Shown: one piece after another, positions 26,901-58,832 of the stretch
Layout: every line of letters starts with the position of its first letter
How positions within the stretch are numbered: position 1 is the stretch's first letter
NCBI GenBank assembly: GCA_963825635.1
Contig: CAWGTU010000002.1
Span: 58,638-122,637, forward strand
Origin: an uncultured Actinomycetes bacterium
GTDB lineage: Bacteria; Actinomycetota; UBA4738; HRBIN12
Reading direction: 5' to 3'
Length of the DNA stretch: 64,000 bases
Made by a program: the position numbers and the translations under genes
Notes under the pieces: model-generated
Told to the model about the DNA's origin: nothing
The model's input: the letters and a program-made list of their open reading frames with translations, nothing else
Database searches by the model: none

Positions 26901-26977
26901 CTGTCGGGACACGCGGGGTCTCCTCTTCGTGCGGTCGGCTCGCCCGGGCATCGTATGCCGCGCGCGGCGCATGGCGG

Positions 26978-27050
26978 TGGAGACGACCGGGATCGAACCG
27001 GCGACCTCCGGCTTGCAAAGCCGGCGCTCTTCCAACTGAGCTACGTCCCC
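26978..27050 (-). tRNA. tRNA-Ala (anticodon TGC)
   Basis: GGGGACGTAGCTCAGTTGGAAGAGCGCCGGCTTTGCAAGCCGGAGGTCGCCGGTTCGATCCCGGTCGTCTCCA. The cloverleaf folds, the anticodon is TGC, and the G3:U70 identity pair is present. Confidence 0.9.
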
Positions 27051-28531: not shown

Positions 28532-30385
28532 TCAACCCTCGAGCGGGAACACCCCGAGGAGCCGCTCGGCGCCCTCAGCGTAGGTGACGACCTCGGCGTG
28601 CAGGGCCACGCACGACGCGGAGACGGTCGGCCCGATGTCGCGCATCCAGCCCTCGAGCTCGTGCCACCGGGCCGTCCCGCGATCGACCGGGTATGCGAGC
28701 GAGAGATGCGGGATCCATCCATCGAGCGCGATCCGGTCGCTCTCCGCGGTCGGCAGCCCCGCGTCGACGGATGCGGAGCGCAGGTCCGATATCGCCGGGA
28801 GGATCGCCGACCCATCGAGTCGGACGATCGGAGTGTCGGCTTGGCGGAGGATCTCGAGCGCGGTCGAGCGCAGCTCGAGCCCGCCCTGCGACGCCGCCCA
28901 TGCCTGGACGACCTCGACGATCCGCCGCTCGTCCTCACCGGTGAGGGGCGAGTCCCGCGTTCCGAACGCCTTCAGGGTGGCGTGTCCTGCCGGGGCGGCG
29001 CATCGCACCCCGATGCGATCGAGCGTCTCCCCCTGCCAACCGGAGAACGCCTTCGCCAGGGCTCCGACCGGCCGCACGATCACGTATGCGGTACCCAGCG
29101 CCTCGCGGAACTTCCACTCGTCGACGAGGATCGGGGACTCGGACGGAGCCAGGCGATCCTCGACGTCGAGCCACTGCACGAGGCCCTCGTGGTTCAGTCC
29201 GATCTCGACACGTGCATCGCCGCCGGCGGTGGTGAAGGTCCCTCGCAACGGCGTCTCCGCCTCGATCGACTCCACCGCCAGGCCCCCAGAGCGCGCCACG
29301 AGGCGACCTGCCTGAGCGGCGCGCCGTTCATAGGACTCGTCGGTCGCCACGTTGTCGGCGAACAGCGCGCCGGCCTCTGCGTCGCGCCACGACGACAGGA
29401 GCGCCGCGGCTCTCGTCGCACCCTCTGCGAGCGACGCGGTCTCCACCGCGCGTCGCGGTCCCAGCTCGTTGCGATCCGCGAGCATCTCGAGCGCCTCGAT
29501 GCAGGCGCCGTGCATGTCGCCGTACGTGACGTTCGAGAGTCCGATCACGCCGACGTCGTGCTCCGGCAGCCAACGCATGTGCGAGCCGTACCCCGGCAGC
29601 CCCCCGCTGTGGCCGACGGATGTGCCGAGCCGTTCGTCGATACGCACGCCCAGGCCGATGCCGTAGCCGGTCGCGCTCACCCGCGACGATCCGCCCGGCG
29701 AGGGGCGGTACCGGGTCACCTCGTCCACCCGGCGGAGCTGCTGCATCTCTCGGCGCGCCCATCGGGGAAGCGGGCCGTCGTCGGGCTCGTCGCGCGGAGG
29801 CCACGCGTCGAGGAAGAATCCGACCCAGCGCGCCAGGTCTCGCACGGTCGTCCACAGGCCGCCCATCGGGGCGATCGTGCCGTCGCCCAGGGGCTCCCCC
29901 TCGTGCACCCACGCTCCGTCCTGCAGGCGGTAGGGCTCCGCCACGACGGCGGAGCCGGGTCGCACCCACGTCGTCGACGTCATGCCGAGCGGTTCGAGCA
30001 GTGATCGGACGACGAGGTCCTGCACGCGCTCCCCGGCGACGCGCTCGATCACACGGCCGACCAGACCCCAGCCGAGGTTCGAGTACTCGAACCTCGTGCC
30101 CGGGGTCCAGGCGAAGGCCACCCCCGCGTCGATCAGCGCGTCCATCGACCCCGGCGAGAGATCCAGGTGCCGGTCCGCCCATGCGTCGTCGGTCGGGAGG
30201 CCGGCTTCCATCGACACGAGGTGCCGCACGGTGATCGGCGGACCGTCGGACGTCGGGCCTCGCCAGGCCGAGAGCTCGGGGACGTGCACGGACACCGGGT
30301 CGTCCAGCCGGAGCCGGCCGTCGGCCACGAGCATCATCAGCGCGGCTCCCGTGAAGCTCTTGGTCATCGACGCGATGCGGAACAC
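28532..30385 (-). CDS. serine hydrolase (beta-lactamase/PBP4-like family) fused to a C-terminal 2H phosphoesterase (LigT-like) domain; N-terminus frameshifted
   Basis: SMTKSFT (SxxK), YSNLGW (YxN) and HSGG motifs are followed by a C-terminal roughly 190 aa with two H-x-T/S-x motifs (HATLKAFG, HLSLAY). The true N-terminal roughly 70 aa (…ALAEVFARWMRRERIPGVAWGLV…SLSLDEPGDA) lies in another frame at 30386–30608. Confidence 0.6.
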   Translation of the reverse strand: MFRIASMTKSFTGAALMMLVADGRLRLDDPVSVHVPELSAWRGPTSDGPPITVRHLVSMEAGLPTDDAWADRHLDLSPGSMDALIDAGVAFAWTPGTRFEYSNLGWGLVGRVIERVAGERVQDLVVRSLLEPLGMTSTTWVRPGSAVVAEPYRLQDGAWVHEGEPLGDGTIAPMGGLWTTVRDLARWVGFFLDAWPPRDEPDDGPLPRWARREMQQLRRVDEVTRYRPSPGGSSRVSATGYGIGLGVRIDERLGTSVGHSGGLPGYGSHMRWLPEHDVGVIGLSNVTYGDMHGACIEALEMLADRNELGPRRAVETASLAEGATRAAALLSSWRDAEAGALFADNVATDESYERRAAQAGRLVARSGGLAVESIEAETPLRGTFTTAGGDARVEIGLNHEGLVQWLDVEDRLAPSESPILVDEWKFREALGTAYVIVRPVGALAKAFSGWQGETLDRIGVRCAAPAGHATLKAFGTRDSPLTGEDERRIVEVVQAWAASQGGLELRSTALEILRQADTPIVRLDGSAILPAISDLRSASVDAGLPTAESDRIALDGWIPHLSLAYPVDRGTARWHELEGWMRDIGPTVSASCVALHAEVVTYAEGAERLLGVFPLEG

Positions 30386-30606
30386 GCTGTCGGCGTCGGG
30401 CGTCGCCGGGCTCGTCGAGGCTCAGCGAGCCGACGCCGCCGGAGTCCACCAGCTCCCCGCCTCGCACGAGTCCCCACGCGACACCGGGGATGCGCTCGCG
30501 CCGCATCCATCGCGCGAACACCTCTGCGAGCGCTCGGTCACCTCGTCGCCATCGGATGCGTAGCCTACGAGGCACCGCGGTGGACGGTCGCTGCCACGAT
30601 GGCGAC

Positions 30607-31254
30607 ATGGAGTTCGACGGGCACATCCTCGGCGCGTCGTTCGCCTCGGGCGATCGGATCGTGGTGGGTCGGTGGCTCCGCTCCCCGCTCGGCTCCTTCG
30701 CCGACGTGATGTGGTGCCGATCCGACGGCCGCCGCGTGCTGCTCGCGCCCGACGAGCGAGTGCGGGACTTCCTTGCCGGCCATTACGCGTTCGACGAGCT
30801 GCGCGTCGAACGGGTCACGGCGGAGCGAACGGGAGACGGCGTGATCGTGGGATCGGCCGGTCCGGTGCGACTGACGGTGCGACCGAGCGGGCCCGGGTGG
30901 GCGTCACTGCTGCTCGCCCTGCGGCCGCGAGGGATCCGCACCGCGAAGGCCTGGATCGACCTCGAGGACCGGGTGCTCCGGCCGCTCGTGCGACCGCTGT
31001 TCGCGGCCGCCGACGTACGAACCTCCGGCGAGACCCTCGCAGGCGCCCGAGAGCGTTACGCGATCCACGACTTCCGTCACGCGGAGGCGACCGCCTCGGT
31101 CGATGGCGTCGATCTCGGTCCTACGGCTCTCTGTGCGCCCGCGGGATTCGGATTCAGCGAGTTCCCGTCGACCGCGGCGCTCGTGCGCGTGACGTCGATC
31201 TTCGAGGGAGATGCGGCTGCGGAGGCCGTCTCAGGCAGACCCCGCGGTGGGTGA
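30607..31254 (+). CDS. hypothetical protein
   Basis: About 215 aa from ATG 30607 (MEFDGHILGASFASGDRIVVGRW...). Codon usage is protein-like. Divergent from the serine hydrolase. Confidence 0.4.
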   Translation: MEFDGHILGASFASGDRIVVGRWLRSPLGSFADVMWCRSDGRRVLLAPDERVRDFLAGHYAFDELRVERVTAERTGDGVIVGSAGPVRLTVRPSGPGWASLLLALRPRGIRTAKAWIDLEDRVLRPLVRPLFAAADVRTSGETLAGARERYAIHDFRHAEATASVDGVDLGPTALCAPAGFGFSEFPSTAALVRVTSIFEGDAAAEAVSGRPRGG

Positions 31255-31878
31255 CGGGCTGTTCGTCGGGGTCGGCGACATGCCGGGCCGCCACTGTTCC
31301 ACGGCCCCGCCGTCGGGAGCTCGGTCGAGGCAGGTTCGCCGGCAGACCTCGCCGGTGAAGCTCGTCATCGCCCACCAGAAGTACGACGTGCGGAACCGCC
31401 CGAACTCGAGGGTCTTGATCGGCACCGCGACCGACATGCCGTCGGACGACTTGCGTCGGACCTTCACGTTGCGCAGGAACAGGTCGCGACGGTCGCGGCG
31501 ATCGCGCCAGAGCGACGCCTGCAGGTCGGATCCCGTGCTTCGGACCACCACGAAGTACTCGGCGTCCTCGCCTCCTTGGGTGTCGAGGAAGACGTAGGCG
31601 TTGCCGCGGTCCCAGATCGACGCGGGCCTCCAATCGGCGAACGTGATCACTGTCACCTCGGTGCGGCCCTGGTGGTCGAGGCGCACCTTGCGCACATCGA
31701 GCAGCCCCCGGGTGTCGTTGGGATCGTCGACGTCGCTGTGGAACGACGGCGCGGCGAGCGCCGCCAGCGCCATCGCCACGATCAGGCCCGCCACGAGGAA
31801 CGGCACGACCGAACGCAGCGGTGATGCGGCCCAGCGGTCGCGGGTTCGGATCACGCGGGCGTCCCCCGGCCCAGCCAT
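31231..31878 (-). CDS. signal-anchored hypothetical protein (last gene of the MauD/MauE-like operon)
   Basis: TM anchor VVPFLVAGLIVAMALAALAA followed by a roughly 170-aa soluble domain. The alternative GTG 31854 start overlaps the upstream stop (GTGA). Confidence 0.5.
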   Translation of the reverse strand: MAGPGDARVIRTRDRWAASPLRSVVPFLVAGLIVAMALAALAAPSFHSDVDDPNDTRGLLDVRKVRLDHQGRTEVTVITFADWRPASIWDRGNAYVFLDTQGGEDAEYFVVVRSTGSDLQASLWRDRRDRRDLFLRNVKVRRKSSDGMSVAVPIKTLEFGRFRTSYFWWAMTSFTGEVCRRTCLDRAPDGGAVEQWRPGMSPTPTNSPSPTAGSA

Positions 31879-32975
31879 CTGATCGCCGTCCACGCGGTGA
31901 AGCCTGCCACGCCGAGACCCACGACGACCAACACCATCGGTAGCAACTCTCCCGAGGTGGGCCATCCCGGCCACGACAGCACCGGCTCGGGAGCGGGACG
32001 GAGCGTGACCACGAGCGCGAGCGCCGCGAGTGCCGCGTTGCGCATCAGCAGGGCACCGGGCTCCACCGCTTCGCGACCGCCGAAACACCCGCACGGCACC
32101 TGCGGACCGAATCGGCGCCATGCGCGCACCGCTTCCGCGGTGAACACGACCAACAGCACGAGTGCCCAGACGCCCGCGGTCCGCGTCCAGCCCGACGCGA
32201 CCATGATCGGGACGAGGGCTTCCGCGGTCGGCACGGCGAGCGTGGCGGCGCTCTCGACACCGTGTGGGAGCCCGTGCTCATCGAGCGTGGCCCGCCATCC
32301 TGGGAGATCGACCGCCTTCGACATCGCCGCCCACGCGAAGGCGATGGCGAGGGCCGCGGTCGCGAGCGAGGCCCACCCGTCGTCGGCCTGCGTCGCCAGC
32401 GCGACCGACACCACGGCGACGACGACGAGCACAACCCCGTTCGCGAGGTTCCGTCGGCCCTCCGGCGACCCGGCCAGGCGATCGACCAACCGTTGGGACT
32501 CCTGCTGGGTGTGCACGCCGGCCGACCTGGCGGCCGAGAGACCCCGAACCAGCCCGAACGGCGCGACGATGAGCGCGCCCACCGCGGGATCACCCGAGGC
32601 GAACGCGGCGAGAGCCACGACCACGAGGGTGCCGTGGGACACGTAGGTGAAGAACCCGATGCCGAGACCGGCGCCGTACAGGGTCGCGGCGATCGGCCAC
32701 GAGAAGAACTCACGCCACCAGTCGGGAACCTGCCGGCGGAGCTGCGGCACCGTTGCCGTCACGCGGGGGAGCTCCCCCAGCGCGTAGACGATCGCCGTGA
32801 TCGCGACGGCCACGGCACCGGCGCGTCCCCAGGGCGCCTCGAGCAGCGCACCAGTGAAGCCCAGCGCGGCGCCGAAGAGCGCGGCGGTCACGGTCGCGCC
32901 CGCAACGTGCAGCGATAGGGCGACGGCCCACCTCGTTCGTCCCCCGTACACGACGGGGGTGATGGTCTCCACCAT
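31851..32975 (-). CDS. MauE/DoxX-like polytopic membrane protein (methylamine utilisation MauE family)
   Basis: 374-aa multi-TM protein whose C-terminal region has the VPCGCFG motif characteristic of the MauE family. Confidence 0.65.
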   Translation of the reverse strand: MVETITPVVYGGRTRWAVALSLHVAGATVTAALFGAALGFTGALLEAPWGRAGAVAVAITAIVYALGELPRVTATVPQLRRQVPDWWREFFSWPIAATLYGAGLGIGFFTYVSHGTLVVVALAAFASGDPAVGALIVAPFGLVRGLSAARSAGVHTQQESQRLVDRLAGSPEGRRNLANGVVLVVVAVVSVALATQADDGWASLATAALAIAFAWAAMSKAVDLPGWRATLDEHGLPHGVESAATLAVPTAEALVPIMVASGWTRTAGVWALVLLVVFTAEAVRAWRRFGPQVPCGCFGGREAVEPGALLMRNAALAALALVVTLRPAPEPVLSWPGWPTSGELLPMVLVVVGLGVAGFTAWTAIRWLGRGTPA

Positions 32976-33082
32976 CGACAGCCCTCAGGGGCCGTAGAGC
33001 GCTGACCACCCGGCGACCGCCGACGCTGTGACGAGCATCAGGAGCAGTGCCATCGCGAGTGCGCCGCCGCCGAACGGATCGG

Positions 33083-33601
33083 TCAACACTTCTTGTTGAG
33101 CTCCCTGTAGGTGATGCAGAAGACCTTCAGCCGCCGCGGGCAGTATCCCCGGACCGCATAGTCCCCGTTGATGCGGATGTTCGAACGGGAGCAGCAGTCC
33201 TGGATGTGGCGCAGCCGACCCGAGCAGCACCGGGTCCATCCGCCTCCGTACCGCGGTGACCCGGTGAAGGGGTACGCCTCGGGCACGACCTGCTCGCACG
33301 TCTTGCGGCGGGTCTGCTTCCGAGGATCGACGTACTTGTCCCCCTCGTCGTCGACCGGGTACCCGTACTGGGGATGCATCGGGTAGCCGTAGCGGTCGGT
33401 GCGGGACAGCGGGGAGTACGGGTGGGGGCAGGAGCCCGTCGTATAGGTGTGCCCGCAGATGTGATAGGCCTGCGCGCGATCGGGCGCGATCGCGGTGGCC
33501 ACCAGGCCCCCGCCGGCGAGCGCCACCACCCCCCGGCCGACACGACCGAGGAAGCTCCGGCGGCTGGTGCGCGTGGCGAGCGATCGCTCCGCCCGTTCCA
33601 T
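33083..33601 (-). CDS. Tat-secreted cysteine-rich small protein (10 Cys), MauA-light-chain-like candidate
   Basis: Twin-arginine signal TSRRSFLGRVGRGVVALAGG…AQA. The roughly 125-aa mature part has 10 Cys including two CC pairs (RCCSG, DCCSRS). It starts 5 nt after the MauD-like stop. Confidence 0.6.
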   Translation of the reverse strand: MERAERSLATRTSRRSFLGRVGRGVVALAGGGLVATAIAPDRAQAYHICGHTYTTGSCPHPYSPLSRTDRYGYPMHPQYGYPVDDEGDKYVDPRKQTRRKTCEQVVPEAYPFTGSPRYGGGWTRCCSGRLRHIQDCCSRSNIRINGDYAVRGYCPRRLKVFCITYRELNKKC

Positions 33602-33606
33602 CGAGG

Positions 33607-34116
33607 TCAGCTTGCCCACTGTGCGCGATCCTCCGTGATCCGTCGGTTGGCGGTGTCCACGAGCCCCTCGACCTGTTCGAGGTTGTTCACGGTCCCCTTG
33701 GCGCGCACGACTCCCCGTTCGTCGAGCACGACGACGAACGGGGTGCCGGGAACCGCGAGCGCTCGCTCGGCTTCGGTGTCGTGCACGACGATCGGCTCCA
33801 GCCGTCCGGCGGCGGCGGCGGCCGGCACCCCCGGCGCGACCTCGAGGCAGACGGCGCACGTCTCCGAGGCGAACAGCACGAGGCGAGGCCGGCCCGCGCC
33901 GCCGAGCACGACCGCCCCCCCGTCGGCGTCGTGAGCCGAGAGCGGGGGCAGCGGCTCGCCGAGCGCCGGGCCCTCGTCGTCGATCTCGAGGGCGCCGCGC
34001 GGACCGAGCCGCAGATGCAGGGTGCCGACCTGCCGGGCGAGCGCGACCACCACGATGCTGAGCACGACCACGAGCAGCCACAGCACGACGAACGCCAGCG
34101 CCCACCACCCGGTCAT
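33607..34116 (-). CDS. TlpA/MauD-like thioredoxin-fold thiol-disulfide oxidoreductase, membrane-anchored
   Basis: N-terminal TM anchor and ETCAVC (CxxC) active site in a redoxin fold of about 169 aa. Confidence 0.7.
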   Translation of the reverse strand: MTGWWALAFVVLWLLVVVLSIVVVALARQVGTLHLRLGPRGALEIDDEGPALGEPLPPLSAHDADGGAVVLGGAGRPRLVLFASETCAVCLEVAPGVPAAAAAGRLEPIVVHDTEAERALAVPGTPFVVVLDERGVVRAKGTVNNLEQVEGLVDTANRRITEDRAQWAS

Positions 34117-34176
34117 CCGGCCGGTCCCCCGGCGGGTCCTCCGGCCATCACCGTTCGGCCGGCGCTTCCCACGGCC

Positions 34177-34737
34177 TCAGCGCATCGTCCAGGTCGGCTG
34201 CTTCGTCTCATCGAGGAACTGTACGAACGGTGAGCCGTCGCCGGCCAGTCCGACGATCGCCCGAAGCTCGCCCGCCCGGTCGAGCAGACGGAGCACCGGT
34301 GAGCCTTCGGCGGCCAGACCGAGACGAACCCGCACCTTGCCCGCGTGGTCGTAGAGACCGAGCGTCGGGGACCCCTGCTCCGCGAGGGCGTAGACCTGGG
34401 AGAGCTCGCCATCGGCCACCTGCATCCCCATCGTGGGTGACGCCTCGGGTGCGAGACCGAACTTCGCCCGGATGCGCCCGTTCTTGTCGCCGAACGCCAG
34501 GCTCGCGCTGCCGTCGCTCGACAGGCCGACCGTCGCACGCACCTTTCCGTTCTCGTCGCCCACCGCGAGCCCGGCGGCACCGTCGGCGGAGAGGCCGAAC
34601 CGCATGCGCACCTGCCCGTCGGGCGACAGCAGCGAGAAGAACGGGTCCTCGTCGTTCGAGAGCCCGATGCGCACCCTGACCCGCCCGTCGTCGTCGACGA
34701 CCTCGAACTCGCCCGCCTGCACGACTCGCTTCTTCAT
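34177..34737 (-). CDS. tandem-repeat protein (7 x ~23 aa, consensus xGxVRxRxGLxxDGSxxLxxxDx), hypothetical
   Basis: Direct inspection shows seven consecutive 23-residue repeats (DGQVRMRFGLSADGAAGLAVGDE, NGKVRATVGLSSDGSASLAFGDK, ...). No signal peptide. First gene of the operon. Confidence 0.55.
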   Translation of the reverse strand: MKKRVVQAGEFEVVDDDGRVRVRIGLSNDEDPFFSLLSPDGQVRMRFGLSADGAAGLAVGDENGKVRATVGLSSDGSASLAFGDKNGRIRAKFGLAPEASPTMGMQVADGELSQVYALAEQGSPTLGLYDHAGKVRVRLGLAAEGSPVLRLLDRAGELRAIVGLAGDGSPFVQFLDETKQPTWTMR

Positions 34738-37418: not shown

Positions 37419-38060
37419 TCAGCGACGGGGACGCTCAGCGAGGGTGACCTCGACCCCGCCGATGATGTCGCTGATCAGGTTGTAGAGCATCGCGATGAAG
37501 ACGTTGATCACCGACCACACCGCGACGAAGACCAGCCCGCCGAAGAGCCCCCACATGAAGAGCGACCCCCCGTCGATGTCGATCGGTTCGGCGCCCCCCG
37601 TCGATGTCGTGCCCGTGCCGAAGACGTAGCCGAGCACCGTCTCGAGCGAGTCGATCGCCCCCGCGGCCGCGAGGACCCCGTACACGATCACCATCGCGAA
37701 CAGCACGATCAGCATCAGGCACAGGTAGAACAGCAGCGAGAACTTGAGCACCGACAGAGGCCCCACCTTGCGCACCACCACCCGGGTGCGGCGCGGCGCC
37801 GATCGCACGCGTGGCGGGCGTGAGGGCTGCGCCGCACGAGCGGAGCGCGGCGTCTTCGGGCCGGCGACGAACGACCCCTCGGCTCCGGAGGACGGGGTCG
37901 GCGTCGTCGGCGCGGGTGATGGCGTCGGGGACGTAGCCGGCGCCGGAGCGTCGATCGCGGTCGCGACCACGTGCGGCTGCGGCACGGGCACGCCCGCGTC
38001 GGGCCCGCGCTGCTGCTGACGCGGTTCGGCGGTCTCCGGTTGCTCGGCCGTGTGCACCAT
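37419..38060 (-). CDS. DUF3566 transmembrane protein (Rv0007-like)
   Basis: Pro/Ala-rich disordered N-terminus followed by VRKVGPLSVLKFSLLFYLCLMLIVLF…YNLISDIIGGVEVTLAERPRR, matching the conserved Rv0007-family core. Confidence 0.7.
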   Translation of the reverse strand: MVHTAEQPETAEPRQQQRGPDAGVPVPQPHVVATAIDAPAPATSPTPSPAPTTPTPSSGAEGSFVAGPKTPRSARAAQPSRPPRVRSAPRRTRVVVRKVGPLSVLKFSLLFYLCLMLIVLFAMVIVYGVLAAAGAIDSLETVLGYVFGTGTTSTGGAEPIDIDGGSLFMWGLFGGLVFVAVWSVINVFIAMLYNLISDIIGGVEVTLAERPRR

Positions 38061-39333: not shown

Positions 39334-41784
<2,451 letters not shown>

Positions 41785-41836: not shown

Positions 41837-43945
<2,109 letters not shown>

Positions 43946-46781: not shown

Positions 46782-48215
46782 TCATGCGGCGCGCACCCGA
46801 CCGCGGATGATGCGTGTGAGGTCTTGGACCTGGCGGAACGTGGCGTCGCGAGCCCGCATCTCGTCCTCGACTTTGCGGATGCCGTGCAGCACGGTCGTGT
46901 GGTCACGGCCGCCGAAGATCTCGCCGATCTTCAGCAGCGACAAGCCTGTGCACTCGCGCGTGAGGTACATCGCGATGTGCCGGGCCTGGGTGAGCGGACG
47001 AGACCGCGACTTCGACATCAGGTCCGCCGGCGAGAGCGAGAAGTACTTCGAGGTCTCGTCGAGGATCAGCGGCGGCGGGATCTCGTTCTGGGTCTGAGGG
47101 ATGAGGTCCTCGAGCGCACGCTCGGCGAGTGTGTTGTCGATCGGCTGCCCGGTCAGCTCGCTCCAGGCGACCACCCGAACGAGCGCTCCCTCGAGCTCAC
47201 GCACGGACTGGTCGAACTTGGAGGCGACGAACTCGATCACGTCGGCAGGCACGGTGATGTGCTCGCGCTCGGCCTTCAGCTGCAGGATCGCGATGCGGGT
47301 CTCGAGGTCCGGCGGCTGCACGTCGACGCAGAGACCCCAGCGGAACCGGTTCACCAGCCGCTCCTCGAGCCCCGAGAGCTCGTGCGGGGGACGATCGGAC
47401 GCGATCACGATCTGCTTGCCGGCCCCGTGCAGGTGGTTGAACGTGTGGAAGAACTCGGTCTGGGTTTCCTCGCGCTTCGCCAGGAACTGGATGTCGTCGA
47501 CGAGCAGCACGTCGACCTCGCGGTAGCGCTGGCGGAACGCGTCGCCTCCCTGGCGCTCCCGGACCGCGGTGATGAACTCGGTCACGAACTGTTCCGACGT
47601 GACGTACTTCACGCGCAGCGCGGGTGCGAGCCGGTACATGTGGTGGCCGACCGCGATCAGCAGGTGCGTCTTGCCGAGGCCCACGCCTCCGTAGATGAAC
47701 AGCGGGTTGTACGCCGTCGACGGCGGCGCCTCGGCCACGGCCATCGCCGCGGCGTGAGCGAACCGGTTGCTCGGTCCGGGCACGAAGGCGTCGAACGTGT
47801 AGCTCGGGAACGGCAAGCCGGGCGCGCCGAGCGATCCGCGCGCGGCCGACGGCGCCTCGGGAGCGCCGATCGCGGCGTACGAGGCAGGGGATCGATCGGC
47901 CCCGTCGAGGGGACCGCTCTCGTACGTTCCGGTGGCCTGTTCGCGGAGGGCCCCGTCGATCGAGAGCTCGATCTTCAGCGGGCGTCCGGCCGCTTCCTGG
48001 GCGGCGCGCTCTATCAGCGGAAGATGGTTGTGCTGCAAACGTTCACGAACCAGGGGGCTGGGCACGGCGAGCGTGATCGAGTCCTCGGCCAGGCTGACGG
48101 GCCGCACGTCCGCGAACCACATGACGACGGTGGTCTCAGGGAGCTCCTCGCGTGCCCGATCCAGTACGTGGGCCCACGCGTCTCGAGCCTCGTGTTCGGG
48201 GGACGCTACCGCCAT
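46782..48215 (-). CDS. dnaA: chromosomal replication initiator protein DnaA
   Basis: AAA+ Walker A ([11 protein letters not shown]), sensor motifs and a C-terminal DnaA-box-binding domain. ATG 48215 ([14 protein letters not shown]). Confidence 0.9.
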
Positions 48216-48390
48216 ATGGAATCCACAGCACCTTTCCACACCGGTGGAAAACTCGGGAAGGTTCGTCGTGGCGCCGCACCGTTCGAGGGCTCGGGTCGCC
48301 GGGGGGAAGGCGGGCCGCACGTTAGCACACCGTCCTGGCGGCCCACCGGCCGCCCCTGGGGTCTTGACACTCTTTCTCATGTCAAGGGCT

Positions 48391-48420
48391 TTGTCCTGCG
48401 GCGATGCGGACCCGTATACT
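48391..48420 (+). promoter_or_regulatory. candidate rpmH promoter (TTGTCC - 18 nt - TATACT)
   Basis: Hexamers read directly from the sequence, 76 nt upstream of the rpmH ATG. The CTTGACA-N10-TGTCAAG inverted repeat lies just upstream (48363–48386). Confidence 0.35.
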
Positions 48421-48495
48421 GCGTCGCGGTCGGCCTCCGGCCGCCATCCACACACCACGACCACCCGATCCGATCACGAAGGACCCACGTTCTCG

Positions 48496-48661: not shown

Positions 48662-48967
48662 CGCGAGGTGCGAGATGTCCTCGATCGCGCCCGACCCCGT
48701 CGCGGAAGGCGGGTGGTACTGTTCCTTGCGCCCGGCTCGGGTGAGTGGGCGGTCGTAGCCACGCGTCGTGTGGGCGGGGCCGTCGAGCGGAACCGGGCCA
48801 AGCGGATCCTGCGGGAGGCTTGGAGACAGGTATCGCCGCAGGTCACAGGGGATATCGACGCCGTCCTGGTGGCCCGCGAGGCGATCCGGGGCGCCACGAC
48901 GCAGGATCTGGTGAGTGAGATGACCGAGTTGCTGCCTCGAGAGGCCGTCCGCGATGAACGCGCATGA
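48662..48967 (+). CDS. rnpA: ribonuclease P protein component
   Basis: Small basic protein (…[13 protein letters not shown]…) directly after rpmH. Probable GTG start (48662 or 48677). Confidence 0.75.
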
Positions 48968-49265
48968 GCTCGCCTGGCGCGCCGGCGCTCCTGCGCGGGT
49001 CCTCCTGATCGCCTCGATCCGCGTGTACCGCGCGGTCTTCTCAGGATGGCTCGGCGGCCAGTGCCGCTTCTATCCCACCTGCAGCCGCTACGCGGAAGAC
49101 GCGATCCGCCATCACGGGGCACTGCGTGGATCCGCGCTCGCGGTCTGGCGCGTCGGCCGATGCAACCCCTACGGTCGCGGCGGCCTCGATCCGGTGCCGC
49201 CGTCCAGGCACGGGGCGGGGTTGTATGATGACGTCGTACATATGAACGAGGAGGCTCGCGCCTAG
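48954..49265 (+). CDS. yidD: membrane protein insertion efficiency factor YidD
   Basis: [19 protein letters not shown]…[16 protein letters not shown] is the YidD signature. Confidence 0.8.
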
Positions 49266-49266
49266 C

Positions 49267-50397
49267 ATGCTGGCCGAGATCCCCATCATCTCCCCGATCT
49301 TCCAGGGCCTGCTCGATGGGCTTGGCTGGGTCTTGGCGTGGCTGTATGACGTCATCCCCAACTATGGGGTGGCGATCATCATCCTCACCCTGGTGCTGCG
49401 GTTCCTCCTCTTCCCCCTCGGTATGAAACAGATCAAGTCGATGCAGGCCATGCAGGCGCTACAGCCGAAGATCAAGGACATCCAGAAGAAGTACAAGGGC
49501 AACAAGCAGAAGGCCCAGGAAGAGACGATGCGCCTCTACAAGGAGGCCGGTGTCAACCCACTGGGCGGCTGTCTCCCGGTCCTGGCCCAGTTCCCGTTGC
49601 TGATCGCGATGTACGCCGTACTGAGGGCGCCCGGGTACGAGCCGGTCACGGAGAACGACCAAGTGACGGCGTACATGATCACGAACAACCATCTGCCGAC
49701 CGACAGTGCCCTGTTCGCGAGCGTCGTCACCCACGAGGGCACGGGGTTCCTCGGCCTGAACCTGCAGTGCTCGGCGTCACAGGCCGGGAGTGTGGAGAAC
49801 AGCACGATCAAGGACAGCGAGGGCAACGTCGTCCGGCCCGGCCTGCCACTCGAGAGCGACGAGGGACAGGCGCTCGACTCCTTCGAGTCCAAGCCGGTCC
49901 TGCCATGCGGGACCGACGGGCTGACGTCGAAGGTCGGATACGTGCTGCTGCTCGGCCTCATGATCGCCACGTCCTTCTATCAGACGCTCCAGACCCAGCG
50001 CGCGAGCCCCCAGGGCGCGGCATCCAACCAGCAGCAGATGATCCTTCGGGTCATGCCGCTCTTCTTCGGGTTCATCGGGTTCAGCTTCCCGGCCGGCCTG
50101 GTCTTGTACTGGACCGTTTCCAACCTCTTCATGATCGGGCAGCAGACCCTGCTGCTCCGTGCGGGTCACATCGGACCGGAAGCCCTCGATCGGCGTATGG
50201 CGGAGCAGAAGGCGAAGATGGCGACGCAGGGGGAGAAGCCGCCGAAGAAGGGGTTCATGGCAGGCATGATGGAGCGCGCCGACGAAGAGCGGAAGCGTCG
50301 CGAGGCCGAGGCCAAGAAGACGCCACCACCGAAGAAGGGCAGCTCGACGCAGAGGAAGCCGAAGAAGCCGGGTTCGGGAGGCAAGGGTGGCTCCTGA
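49267..50397 (+). CDS. yidC: membrane protein insertase YidC
   Basis: Short actinobacterial/Gram-positive-type YidC (GCLPVLAQFPLLIAMY…) with a KR-rich C-terminus. Confidence 0.9.
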   Translation: MLAEIPIISPIFQGLLDGLGWVLAWLYDVIPNYGVAIIILTLVLRFLLFPLGMKQIKSMQAMQALQPKIKDIQKKYKGNKQKAQEETMRLYKEAGVNPLGGCLPVLAQFPLLIAMYAVLRAPGYEPVTENDQVTAYMITNNHLPTDSALFASVVTHEGTGFLGLNLQCSASQAGSVENSTIKDSEGNVVRPGLPLESDEGQALDSFESKPVLPCGTDGLTSKVGYVLLLGLMIATSFYQTLQTQRASPQGAASNQQQMILRVMPLFFGFIGFSFPAGLVLYWTVSNLFMIGQQTLLLRAGHIGPEALDRRMAEQKAKMATQGEKPPKKGFMAGMMERADEERKRREAEAKKTPPPKKGSSTQRKPKKPGSGGKGGS

Positions 50398-58505: not shown

Positions 58506-58832
58506 TCAGGCCAGGTGAGGCTCGATGTCGCGCAGGATCGCTTCCTTCGGCTTCGCGCCGATCACACGCGCGACCTCCTGGCCGCCCTTGAACAGGATCA
58601 GGCTCGGGATGCTCATCACGCCGTAGGTCCGGGTCGCTTGCGGATTCTCGTCGATGTTGAGCTTCACGACCTTGAGGGTCTCGCCCTTGTCCTGGCCGAT
58701 CTCCTCGACCACCGGCGAGACCATGTGGCAGGGCACGCACCACTCCGCCCAGAAGTCCACGAGCACGGGGGTCTCGGAGTCCAGGACCGAGGTCTGGAAC
58801 TCCTGGTCGGTCACGCTGTTCGTCGTCGCCAT
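58506..58832 (-). CDS. trxA: thioredoxin
   Basis: PVLVDFWAEWCVPCHM active site (a WCVPC variant of WCGPC) in a thioredoxin fold. ATG 58832. Confidence 0.85.
   Translation of the reverse strand: MATTNSVTDQEFQTSVLDSETPVLVDFWAEWCVPCHMVSPVVEEIGQDKGETLKVVKLNIDENPQATRTYGVMSIPSLILFKGGQEVARVIGAKPKEAILRDIEPHLA

Follow-up and report, generated by a model that had tools for sequence, protein, structure and literature searches.

A vertically inherited actinobacterial operon joins MauF, MauE and MauD relatives to a ten-cysteine Tat-signal protein and carries a candidate selenocysteine codon

We analysed a stretch of 64,000 nucleotides (the window; positions 58,638 to 122,637 of contig CAWGTU010000002.1) from an uncultured Actinomycetes bacterium, and in it an operon whose products resemble parts of the methylamine utilization (mau) system. 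The explanation that we favour, with moderate confidence in its entirety, is that this vertically inherited operon encodes a thiol-redox machine made of MauF, MauE and MauD relatives together with its probable client, a small protein with ten cysteines, and that its MauF part contains selenocysteine (Sec). We are quite confident of one component of this explanation, namely that F, E, D and the client form a dedicated module for a ten-Cys protein exported by the twin-arginine translocation (Tat) pathway. The selenocysteine is probable: judging from alignments and codon patterns, an in-frame UGA at the position of the invariant MauF cysteine would be read as Sec. Relatives of the client fall into two subfamilies, that of the window (subfamily 1) and a second one with a different gene arrangement (subfamily 2). 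An earlier reading of this DNA from its letters (the original prediction) had described the operon as five tightly spaced, co-directional minus-strand genes, and the list of open reading frames (ORFs) of the window contains them as described, at 31231-34737. All features of the operon given below lie on the minus strand.

The central gene is a fusion of MauF and MauE. As re-delimited here, it has 412 codons (31851-33089), begins at GTG 33089, crosses the in-frame TGA and stops at 31851; the ORF as called publicly has 374 aa and starts at ATG 32975 (31851-32975). Its MauE domain (32001-32366, residues 204-325 of the shorter call) matches PF07291 with E = 1.3e-21 and 77.7 bits against a cut-off of 27 bits. 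This profile search had been proposed along with the original prediction, and it supports the polytopic MauE-like protein with a CGCFG motif that had been seen there. The delimitation of that protein did not hold up, as its MauF half and the in-frame TGA had been missed. The CGC active-site motif (C295-G-C297 of the 374-aa call) is encoded at 32085-32093. In 22 homologues C-G-C-F-G, a Lys in the first transmembrane (TM) helix and a Glu in the second are invariant, and these are the residues reported for MauE elsewhere (bioRxiv 10.64898/2026.03.05.709764). In P. denitrificans, MauE (L168 3623-4180) very weakly matches NF050144 (E = 1), a model named 'HvfX family Cu-binding RiPP maturation protein' (RiPP, a peptide made by the ribosome and modified after translation), which hints at another use of MauE/DoxX-like proteins in peptide maturation.

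The MauF-family polytopic membrane domain (32391-33089) comprises residues 1-195 of the 374-aa ORF and the upstream extension. A profile of this domain built across the subfamilies aligns with Paracoccus denitrificans MauF (hhalign, 99.2%, E = 1.2e-19, 187 columns, 29% identity), and thereby contradicts the statement of the original prediction that there is no MauF here. As the reference we used the authentic mau cluster of P. denitrificans PD1222, with the order mauF-B-E-D-A. The window domain has the motifs AG..P[U/C]G.SM, VPQ.RRQVP..WR and LYG..LG.GF.T, and three canonical MauF proteins (from Paracoccus, Methylobacterium and Indioceanicola) share G..PCG.S, PQ.R.QVP...R and LYG..LG with both subfamilies. 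Its AlphaFold2 (AF2) model is all-helical, with a predicted local distance difference test score (pLDDT) of 84.6. Neither Pfam nor NCBIfam has a MauF model, and P. denitrificans MauF itself matches nothing there; the domain is therefore invisible to standard annotation. For each of the best 120 public homologues the gene call begins at the ATG, under the NCBI name 'MauE/DoxX family redox-associated membrane protein'. Membership of the membrane domain in the CcdA/DsbD group is not supported; the match to DsbD_2 (PF13386, E = 0.0016) is below threshold and is lost once the N-terminal extension is added. MauB, MauG and amicyanin, which the original prediction had reported as missing, are absent from the window locus and from all homologous loci inspected, and mauA is likewise absent in the window and in every related locus inspected.

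The MauD-like protein (169 aa, 33607-34116) has an N-terminal TM helix, the juxtamembrane motif LARQVG.LH.R, a thioredoxin fold and a CxxC motif, C87-A-V-C90 (33847-33858), which aligns to CPVC of P. denitrificans MauD. It was thus described correctly as a membrane-anchored MauD-like thioredoxin: it matches TIGR02661 with E = 1.5e-22 and 80 bits, under the equivalog cut-off of 188.6 bits, and it is 31% identical to authentic MauD over 180 residues including the anchor (BLASTP, E = 2e-26). The juxtamembrane motif is conserved and may serve a separate function. The MauD anchor is followed by an Arg-rich flank (ARQVGTLHLRLGPRG). By the positive-inside rule this flank would place the thioredoxin domain in the cytoplasm, while the fusion of a four-helix MauE to the MauD anchor in subfamily 2 (L085 8124-9008) would place it outside instead.

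Between these two genes lies the gene of the Cys-rich protein (178 aa, mature part about 130 aa, 33083-33619), which overlaps both neighbours: at its start it shares 13 nt with the 3' end of mauD, and at its stop it runs into the start of the MauF-MauE gene. Since the homologues are 178 aa long, the true start is GTG 33619. The features of the protein named in the original prediction are all there: the Tat signal (SRRSFLG...AQA), ten cysteines with two CC pairs, and the segments WTRCC and DCCSRSN. The twin arginines R20 and R21 (33557-33562) and F23 are invariant in the subfamily-1 alignment; TIGR01409 gives 15.3 bits, just below its cut-off of 16.7 bits. Among the aligned homologues all ten Cys, W128 and RR-x-F are invariant. 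A motif HxCGH...CPHP and other His, Asp and Arg residues are invariant in subfamily 1, with H53 and H66 not kept in the divergent members P0141 and P0232. We found 643 close homologues, all unnamed and without a Pfam domain, of which the best 120 are at least 69% identical. In GTDB species-representative genomes 204 loci encode a relative, and the hosts are nearly all uncultured soil 'Actinomycetota/Actinomycetes bacterium' metagenome-assembled genomes (MAGs). An exhaustive profile search of 1.84 billion representatives gave 216 matches, mostly fragments, through which the second subfamily came to light, and no bridge to other families. Some sequences show the Cys-rich protein as part of a longer polypeptide with an internal Tat motif, either MauE-MauD-Cys-rich or MauD-Cys-rich (P0135 with 453 aa, P0161 and P0131); these are probably frameshift or read-through artefacts of long-read MAGs. 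Others (P0127, P0136, P0182 and P0253) are clearly frameshifted, and P0136 has W at the TGA position.

The original prediction had proposed that the Cys-rich protein is MauA-like, and this identity was not borne out. Apart from the signal peptide the protein has no Pfam or NCBIfam match. In particular, PF02975 does not match it and TIGR02659 matches (E = 0.043) in the signal peptide only, whereas authentic MauA as a positive control scores 2e-53 and 2.8e-120 against these light-chain models. The family profile has no match among PDB sequences, although the set includes the light chains of methylamine dehydrogenase (MADH) and aromatic amine dehydrogenase (AADH), and hhalign against verified MauA gives a probability of 0.4%. 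The mature domain has one invariant Trp (W128), compared with the two that form tryptophan tryptophylquinone (TTQ) in the light chains. The suggested comparison of an AlphaFold model with the MADH beta subunit was negative as well: Foldseek of the AF2 model has a best E of 0.56 and shows no fold similarity to the solved light chains. The core of this model has a pLDDT of about 80-90; one of five models is good, with a mean pLDDT of 66. On these results the claim of MauA homology falls. A reading as a RiPP precursor was also set aside, as the protein is a full-length conserved Tat preprotein. To judge from these comparisons, the protein is a new unnamed family without detectable homology to MauA, and a positional analogue of it.

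Conservation of the neighbourhood, which the original prediction had named next to fold similarity as decisive, was found. For subfamily 1 we compared the window proteins with 84 related loci by tblastn. Of the 84 loci, 84 match MauD, 79 the repeat protein encoded by the first gene, 76 the (F)E gene product and 66 the fifth protein, always in collinear order; the shortfalls in the counts of D, Cys-rich, (F)E and fifth genes (66-84 of 84) fall at contig ends. However, the upstream neighbours are equally collinear, with MR_MLE in 76 and an acetyltransferase in 74 of the 84 loci, and since such housekeeping neighbours behave alike, synteny in subfamily 1 is by itself no proof of a functional linkage. 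In two loci (L002 and L003) the flanking genes are wholly different and the repeat gene is missing, and the block of D, Cys-rich, (F)E and fifth genes is intact.

The second subfamily of the Cys-rich protein has 1650 members, one of them attributed to Capillimicrobium (Thermoleophilia), and its sequences, about 42% identical, retain all ten Cys along with the Trp and RINGD. Here the system consists of three genes, which encode a MauE-MauD fusion, the Cys-rich protein and a protein of about 500 aa, and it is found in unrelated genomic contexts. The N-terminal membrane domain of the ~500-aa protein is 39-42% identical to residues 1-146 of the 374-aa ORF of the window; this MauF carries a fused extracytoplasmic domain of about 290 aa, which could be placed in no known family (L085 10248-11123; L086 10296-11042). 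Faint matches of this domain to BamB/PQQ_2 beta-propellers occur in 2 of 12 members (E = 0.005), and comparison with MauB (0.6%) and with the fifth protein of the window (0.06%) gave no relationship. Scoring each gene in 83 loci where the flank suffices, we found the Cys-rich gene in 55 of 61, MauD in 34 of 36, MauE in 33 of 36 and the C-terminal domain of the MauF-like protein in 53 of 53. The core of MauE, MauD, Cys-rich protein and MauF thus recurs in subfamily 2, with gene fusions unlike those of subfamily 1, and the association of D, the Cys-rich protein and (F)E is not accidental. With this linkage the broad proposal of the original prediction, that a secreted, disulfide-rich factor not characterised before has a maturation machinery of its own, holds and gains from the presence of MauF, while the part that rested on MauA homology falls away. 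In three metagenome loci of subfamily 2 (L131, L133 and L134) the MauF-like gene with its C-terminal domain is present, and no MauE, MauD or Cys-rich gene is detectable upstream in the available sequence (up to 4 kb); this gene may be a paralogue or belong to an alternative arrangement. One genome has a DSBA-family gene (L086 7208-8086) directly upstream of its MauE-MauD gene of subfamily 2.

The in-frame TGA is codon 35 of the MauF-MauE gene (32985-32987) and aligns with the invariant Cys of 'SPCG' in MauF. The frame reads GTG(33089)...MALLLMLVTASAVAGWSALYGP-TGA-GLS-ATG(MVETI...), and it aligns to ...AGVTGAWSPCGFSMVETL in subfamily 2 and to ...GGLLSTWSPCGYSS in MauF, so that under read-through the peptide would be ...YGP-U-GLSMVETITPVVYGGR. 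The homologous codon specifies Cys in 80 of 80 subfamily-2 loci (TGC 75, TGT 5), and the residue is Cys in the three canonical MauF proteins. In the window, TGA is the ordinary stop in 14 of 16 genes, and the genetic code is therefore the standard one. In subfamily 1 TGA is found at this codon in 83 of 83 loci (80 of 80 unique loci), whereas the true stop of the adjacent Cys-rich gene in the same loci varies (TGA 65, TAG 13, TAA 1; 18% non-TGA).

Both sides of the TGA look like coding sequence. The 23 codons upstream have codon-position entropies of 0.77/0.69/1.18, compared with 0.77/0.76/1.11 for the coding sequence downstream; the third bases of the invariant Gly and Pro codons among them are almost random, and the 74 unique sequences contain no indel. 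The three codons from the TGA to the ATG specify Gly (free third base), Leu/Met/Phe (middle T invariant) and Ser, and match G-[FL]-S of subfamily 2. A GTG or ATG that overlaps the end of the Cys-rich gene (its last Cys codon and stop) is present in 79 of 79 loci and in frame in 77 of these, and the base that creates this start of the MauF-MauE gene is never C or T. The Met of the public 'start' ATG is kept internally in subfamily 2, and the ATG itself lies inside a hairpin. Translation appears to cross the TGA, as shown by the read-through signature and the Sec/Cys alignment, from which we infer the insertion of Sec itself. Sec is decoded by some Actinobacteria, and bacterial selenocysteine insertion sequence (SECIS) elements, which follow the UGA closely on its 3' side, contain a G in their apical loop (PMC1794560, PMC13449736).

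Directly 3' of the TGA we find two conserved hairpins (32941-32976) as a candidate bacterial SECIS. The first, H1 (32961-32976), is GATGGT-GGAG-ACCATC with the loop GGAG and is 99% paired; the second, H2 (32941-32959), is CCCCCGUS...SACGGGGG with the loops CGUGU/GUC and is 88% paired. The pairs show CG/GC and CG/UG/UA variation, and two of them have compensatory changes. The synonymous sites of codons +3, +7, +8, +10, +13 and +14, which fall within H1 and H2, are frozen in the loci with TGA (entropy H3 = 0-0.10) and free in those with Cys (0.58-1.43). The hairpins are absent from subfamily 2.

The mechanism that we propose would begin with the export of the client through Tat, as its invariant SRRxFLG motif suggests. 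The outward-facing CGC of MauE would then make disulfides and pass the electrons to quinone, by homology to MauE proteins of other phyla, for which this activity has been shown, and MauD with its CAVC would carry the disulfides to the client or reshuffle them, in analogy to DsbA/DsbC and judging from mau genetics. MauF would supply a further redox residue at the end of its first TM helix; canonical MauF and the sister subfamily have Cys at this residue, and here, at the UGA, it is most likely Sec, which the hairpins downstream would help to insert. The role of MauF and the direction in which electrons flow are proposals. The fusions of F to E in the window, and in the sister subfamily of E to D and of F to an extracytoplasmic domain, point to a single complex of F, E and D. 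In a more specific form, MauF would be a redox enzyme whose single invariant Cys is catalytic and is replaced by Sec in the MauF-MauE fusion of a lineage of uncultured soil Actinomycetota, and which together with MauD matures the ten-Cys family; we give this version an even chance. The proteins so matured would possibly be cross-linked or cofactor-bearing.

Several observations weigh against this explanation. TGA is the stop codon used most here, and its invariance taken by itself therefore carries little weight; the GAGG inside TGAGG is a possible ribosome-binding site for the ATG. In the window, a motif scan for SelA, SelB and SelD and an Rfam search for tRNA-Sec gave no selA, selB, selC or selD. 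The hairpin energy does not differ significantly from that of shuffled sequence (z = -1.45), the covariation is modest, with a control slid by -1 in register scoring as high or higher, and an Rfam search for SECIS at the hairpins had no match (we know of no dedicated Rfam model for bacterial SECIS elements). The loop of H1 follows the UGA by about 14 nt, which is slightly nearer than in classic bacterial SECIS. Outside the TGA, the AF2 model of the client is only of moderate quality, the MauD-like protein with its score below the cut-off is by sequence related to MauD but no equivalog of it, and the step ascribed to MauF is an inference. The points on GAGG (7-8 nt upstream of the ATG), on TGA as the commonest stop, on hairpin stability and on Sec machinery, together with the public gene calls, which in the best 120 homologues all start at the ATG, would fit an alternative in which the TGA is a real stop. 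MauF would then be split into a 34-residue one-helix peptide without Cys and a MauF'-MauE protein from ATG 32975, the two ORFs being translationally coupled through the GAGG, with no Sec. We consider such a split unlikely, because the three codons between TGA and ATG behave as coding and no indels occur, and the GG of the GAGG belongs to a Gly codon whose invariance is the same in subfamily 2, although a ribosome-binding site is not required there. Moreover, the Met is internal in subfamily 2 and canonical MauF has Ser there, H1 would sequester the proposed start codon, and the split would cost the family its only invariant Cys, with the remainder of the helix still under purifying selection. 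A true stop next door is exchanged in 18% of the loci, the MauF codon never.

The other alternatives concern the client. It could be a cryptic MauA-type subunit of a redox enzyme, with a quinone or cross-link derived from Trp/Cys and matured by F, E and D, whose redox partner is encoded elsewhere or is the product of the fifth gene. All three mau accessory factors F, E and D are indeed present, the order E-D-client is that of mauE-D-A, and the protein has a Tat signal, a mature part of ~130 aa and ten Cys compared with the twelve of MauA; its invariant Trp in GGGW[TS]RCC followed by DCC loosely recalls ASW..C...RDCCG of MauA, and the faint PQQ_2 matches of the subfamily-2 MauF-fused domain (2/12, E = 0.005) point the same way. 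Yet outside the signal peptide neither PF02975 nor TIGR02659 sees what they see in the MauA control, hhalign stays at 0.4%, there is one invariant Trp and an informal alignment puts Phe at Trp108 of MauA. In the neighbourhoods inspected there is no MauG-type di-haem peroxidase, MauB or amicyanin, and the subfamily-2 domain is unrelated to MauB (0.6%), which makes a MauA-type subunit quite improbable. Very improbable in our opinion is a generic housekeeping disulfide system of the DsbB/DsbA type, for which the Cys-rich protein would be one of many substrates or a mere neighbour. MauE is reported to be a generalist, with MauA in just 10% of MauE-bearing species (bioRxiv 10.64898/2026.03.05.709764), and the operon lies in a conserved core-genome region where MR_MLE (76/84) and the acetyltransferase (74/84) are as collinear. 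The client gene, however, sits between D and F-E with start and stop codons overlapping on both sides, and it travels with E, D and F into unrelated contexts in two fusion architectures; apart from mau clusters, the loci that we collected show MauF only in the company of the client, and the separate DSBA-family gene in L086 suggests that general oxidative folding is handled elsewhere. The least probable of the alternatives is a Tat-exported metalloprotein that binds Fe-S, Cu or Zn through Cys/His, where F (Sec/Cys), E and D would handle the metal or cofactor or hold the ligand thiols in the reduced state. Export by Tat is typical of proteins loaded with a cofactor, HxCGH...CPHP and other His, Asp and Arg residues are invariant in subfamily 1, MauE matches the HvfX Cu-binding RiPP maturation family very weakly, and known membrane selenoproteins include metal transporters, a MerT-like protein and SO_0444 Cu/Zn efflux (PMC13188914). 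But H53 and H66 are not conserved in P0141 and P0232, no known metal-site motif or family was detected with Pfam, NCBIfam or the PDB profile, and an even number of Cys, two CC pairs and a DsbB-like protein paired with a thioredoxin-like one fit disulfides more simply.

The operon is located in the region of the chromosomal origin (oriC). The window contains, in this order, DnaA (46782-48464), DnaN, RecF, GyrB (41837-43846), GyrA (39334-41784), DUF3566 (37419-38060), tRNA-Ile, the acetyltransferase, MR_MLE and the operon; a YidD-like ORF (48954-49265) and YidC (49267-50397) are assigned by motif only, and a tRNA-Ala is found at 26976-27050. The order gyrA...tRNA-Ile...MR_MLE...operon recurs in related genomes and is identical in L001 and L004, and GC is flat across the window at about 0.70-0.72. 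Because the oriC-region gene order recurs in relatives and GC is flat, the locus is core genome and not a genomic island; the possible island between two tRNA genes of the original prediction is ruled out by the same observations. A consensus scan for promoters and terminators found none, as expected at 70% GC.

The two outer genes of the operon agree with what had been predicted for them. The first (34177-34737) encodes a repeat protein of 186 aa with about seven 23-residue repeats, a DNA period of 69 nt (Tandem Repeats Finder) and no signal peptide; the repeats are beta-hairpin-like and weakly similar to engineered OspA beta-hairpin-repeat proteins (E = 2.6e-5). Neither L002/L003 nor subfamily 2 has its gene, which makes this protein peripheral to the core. 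The fifth gene (31231-~31878, start uncertain) overlaps the 3' end of the MauF-MauE gene and encodes a signal-anchored protein of about 200 aa that has no family match in Pfam or NCBIfam and no homologue in subfamily 2; a comparison of it with MauB showed no relationship either. Convergent with it, with a 3' overlap of ~24 nt, is a high-GC3 (GC at third codon positions) ORF of 254 aa on the plus strand (30490-31254), which has no Pfam match, occurs in 6 of the 84 related loci and is either lineage-specific or not a gene. Further along, on the minus strand, a 617-aa protein (28532-30385) has a beta-lactamase/serine-hydrolase fold in its N-terminal 290 residues (PF00144, E = 4e-53) and a C-terminal extension of ~320 aa without assignment. 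Some relatives have a DUF3352 gene (579 aa; L001 5073-6812) between the MR_MLE and repeat-protein genes, which the window lacks. Two loci with a typical operon are labelled 'Gemmatimonadales' (L051) and 'Candidatus Velamenicoccus archaeovorus' (L058) and are probably mis-binned actinobacterial contigs.

Returning to the F/E/D module with its client, the closest known system is the mau cluster mauFBEDACJG of Paracoccus denitrificans and Methylobacterium extorquens. Both have homologues of MauF, MauE and MauD, and in both a small Cys-dense protein with a Tat signal follows straight after mauD, as mauA does. The window operon differs in that it lacks the MauB heavy chain, MauG, amicyanin, MauJ and MauR, that its small protein is not a detectable homologue of MauA by sequence or predicted fold, that MauF is fused to MauE (and MauE to MauD in the sister subfamily), that the invariant Cys of MauF is a UGA codon, and that its hosts are uncultured Actinomycetota and not Proteobacteria. 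mauF has been known since the 1990s to be essential for the biogenesis of methylamine dehydrogenase, and we know of no mechanism assigned to MauF. An alternation of Sec and Cys at one position is a classic sign that the residue is a catalytic redox one, and the locus therefore nominates C79 of P. denitrificans MauF as an active site. With the CcdA/DsbD transporters the MauF domain shares a polytopic membrane domain, a Pro-Cys in the first TM helix and the weak DsbD_2 match, and its AG-x6-PC spacing resembles the CcdA TM1 motif; it has one conserved redox residue, however, and no second Cys in a later helix.

As in known selenoproteins, there is a putative Sec/Cys pair at a redox-type residue, a conserved hairpin (here a candidate SECIS) right after the UGA, and Cys orthologues in sister lineages. 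The thiol oxidoreductases among the 119 prokaryotic selenoprotein families inventoried in 2026 include DsbA-like and DsbG-like proteins, the TlpA-like UGC and the rhodanese/DsbD-fusion-like TsoB, and the inventory has no MauF or MauE entry (PMC13188914). Here the Sec would lie in P-U-G-[LF]-S in a membrane helix, and not in UxxC/CxxU in a thioredoxin fold. The extended MauF-MauE protein has no match to the NCBIfam selenoprotein models, and our literature search gave no paper that pairs selenocysteine with 'methylamine utilization protein'. If the reading of the UGA is true, this would be a new polytopic membrane selenoprotein family, absent from that inventory, and the public annotations of the best 120 homologues truncate the protein at an ATG downstream of the UGA.

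What is already known is that MauE is a generalist enzyme and that MauE/MauD occur next to Cys-rich ORFs in Streptomyces (PMC7794033); new, as far as the literature searched goes, are the MauF component, the specific client family and the UGA, none of which we found described. The generalist MauE proteins (Gonzalez et al., bioRxiv 10.64898/2026.03.05.709764) belong to the same Pfam family, with CXC followed by F-G, the Lys and the Glu, and those from two phyla replace E. coli DsbB through the CXC motif. They too have thioredoxin-fold partners, and 8.2% of them are fused to one, as in subfamily 2; the MauE of the window differs in being fused to MauF and locked to one specific client gene, and that paper discusses neither a MauF partnership nor selenocysteine. 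In Streptomyces, candidate RiPP families combine mauE, in one case also mauD, with a precursor that has at least eight Cys (decRiPPter, PMC7794033). The likeness lies in MauE with or without MauD beside a small Cys-rich ORF, no other mau genes, and the reading as a dedicated modification system. The difference is that here we see a 178-aa Tat preprotein with 67-97% identity over its whole length and not a leader-plus-core peptide, a client set apart by description from those precursors, and in addition the MauF partner and the UGA. The fusions F-E and E-D predict a physical complex of the three proteins, and the full MauF/E/D trio, not MauE alone, appears to have found another use outside amine dehydrogenases, for a secreted protein that is widespread and very conserved.

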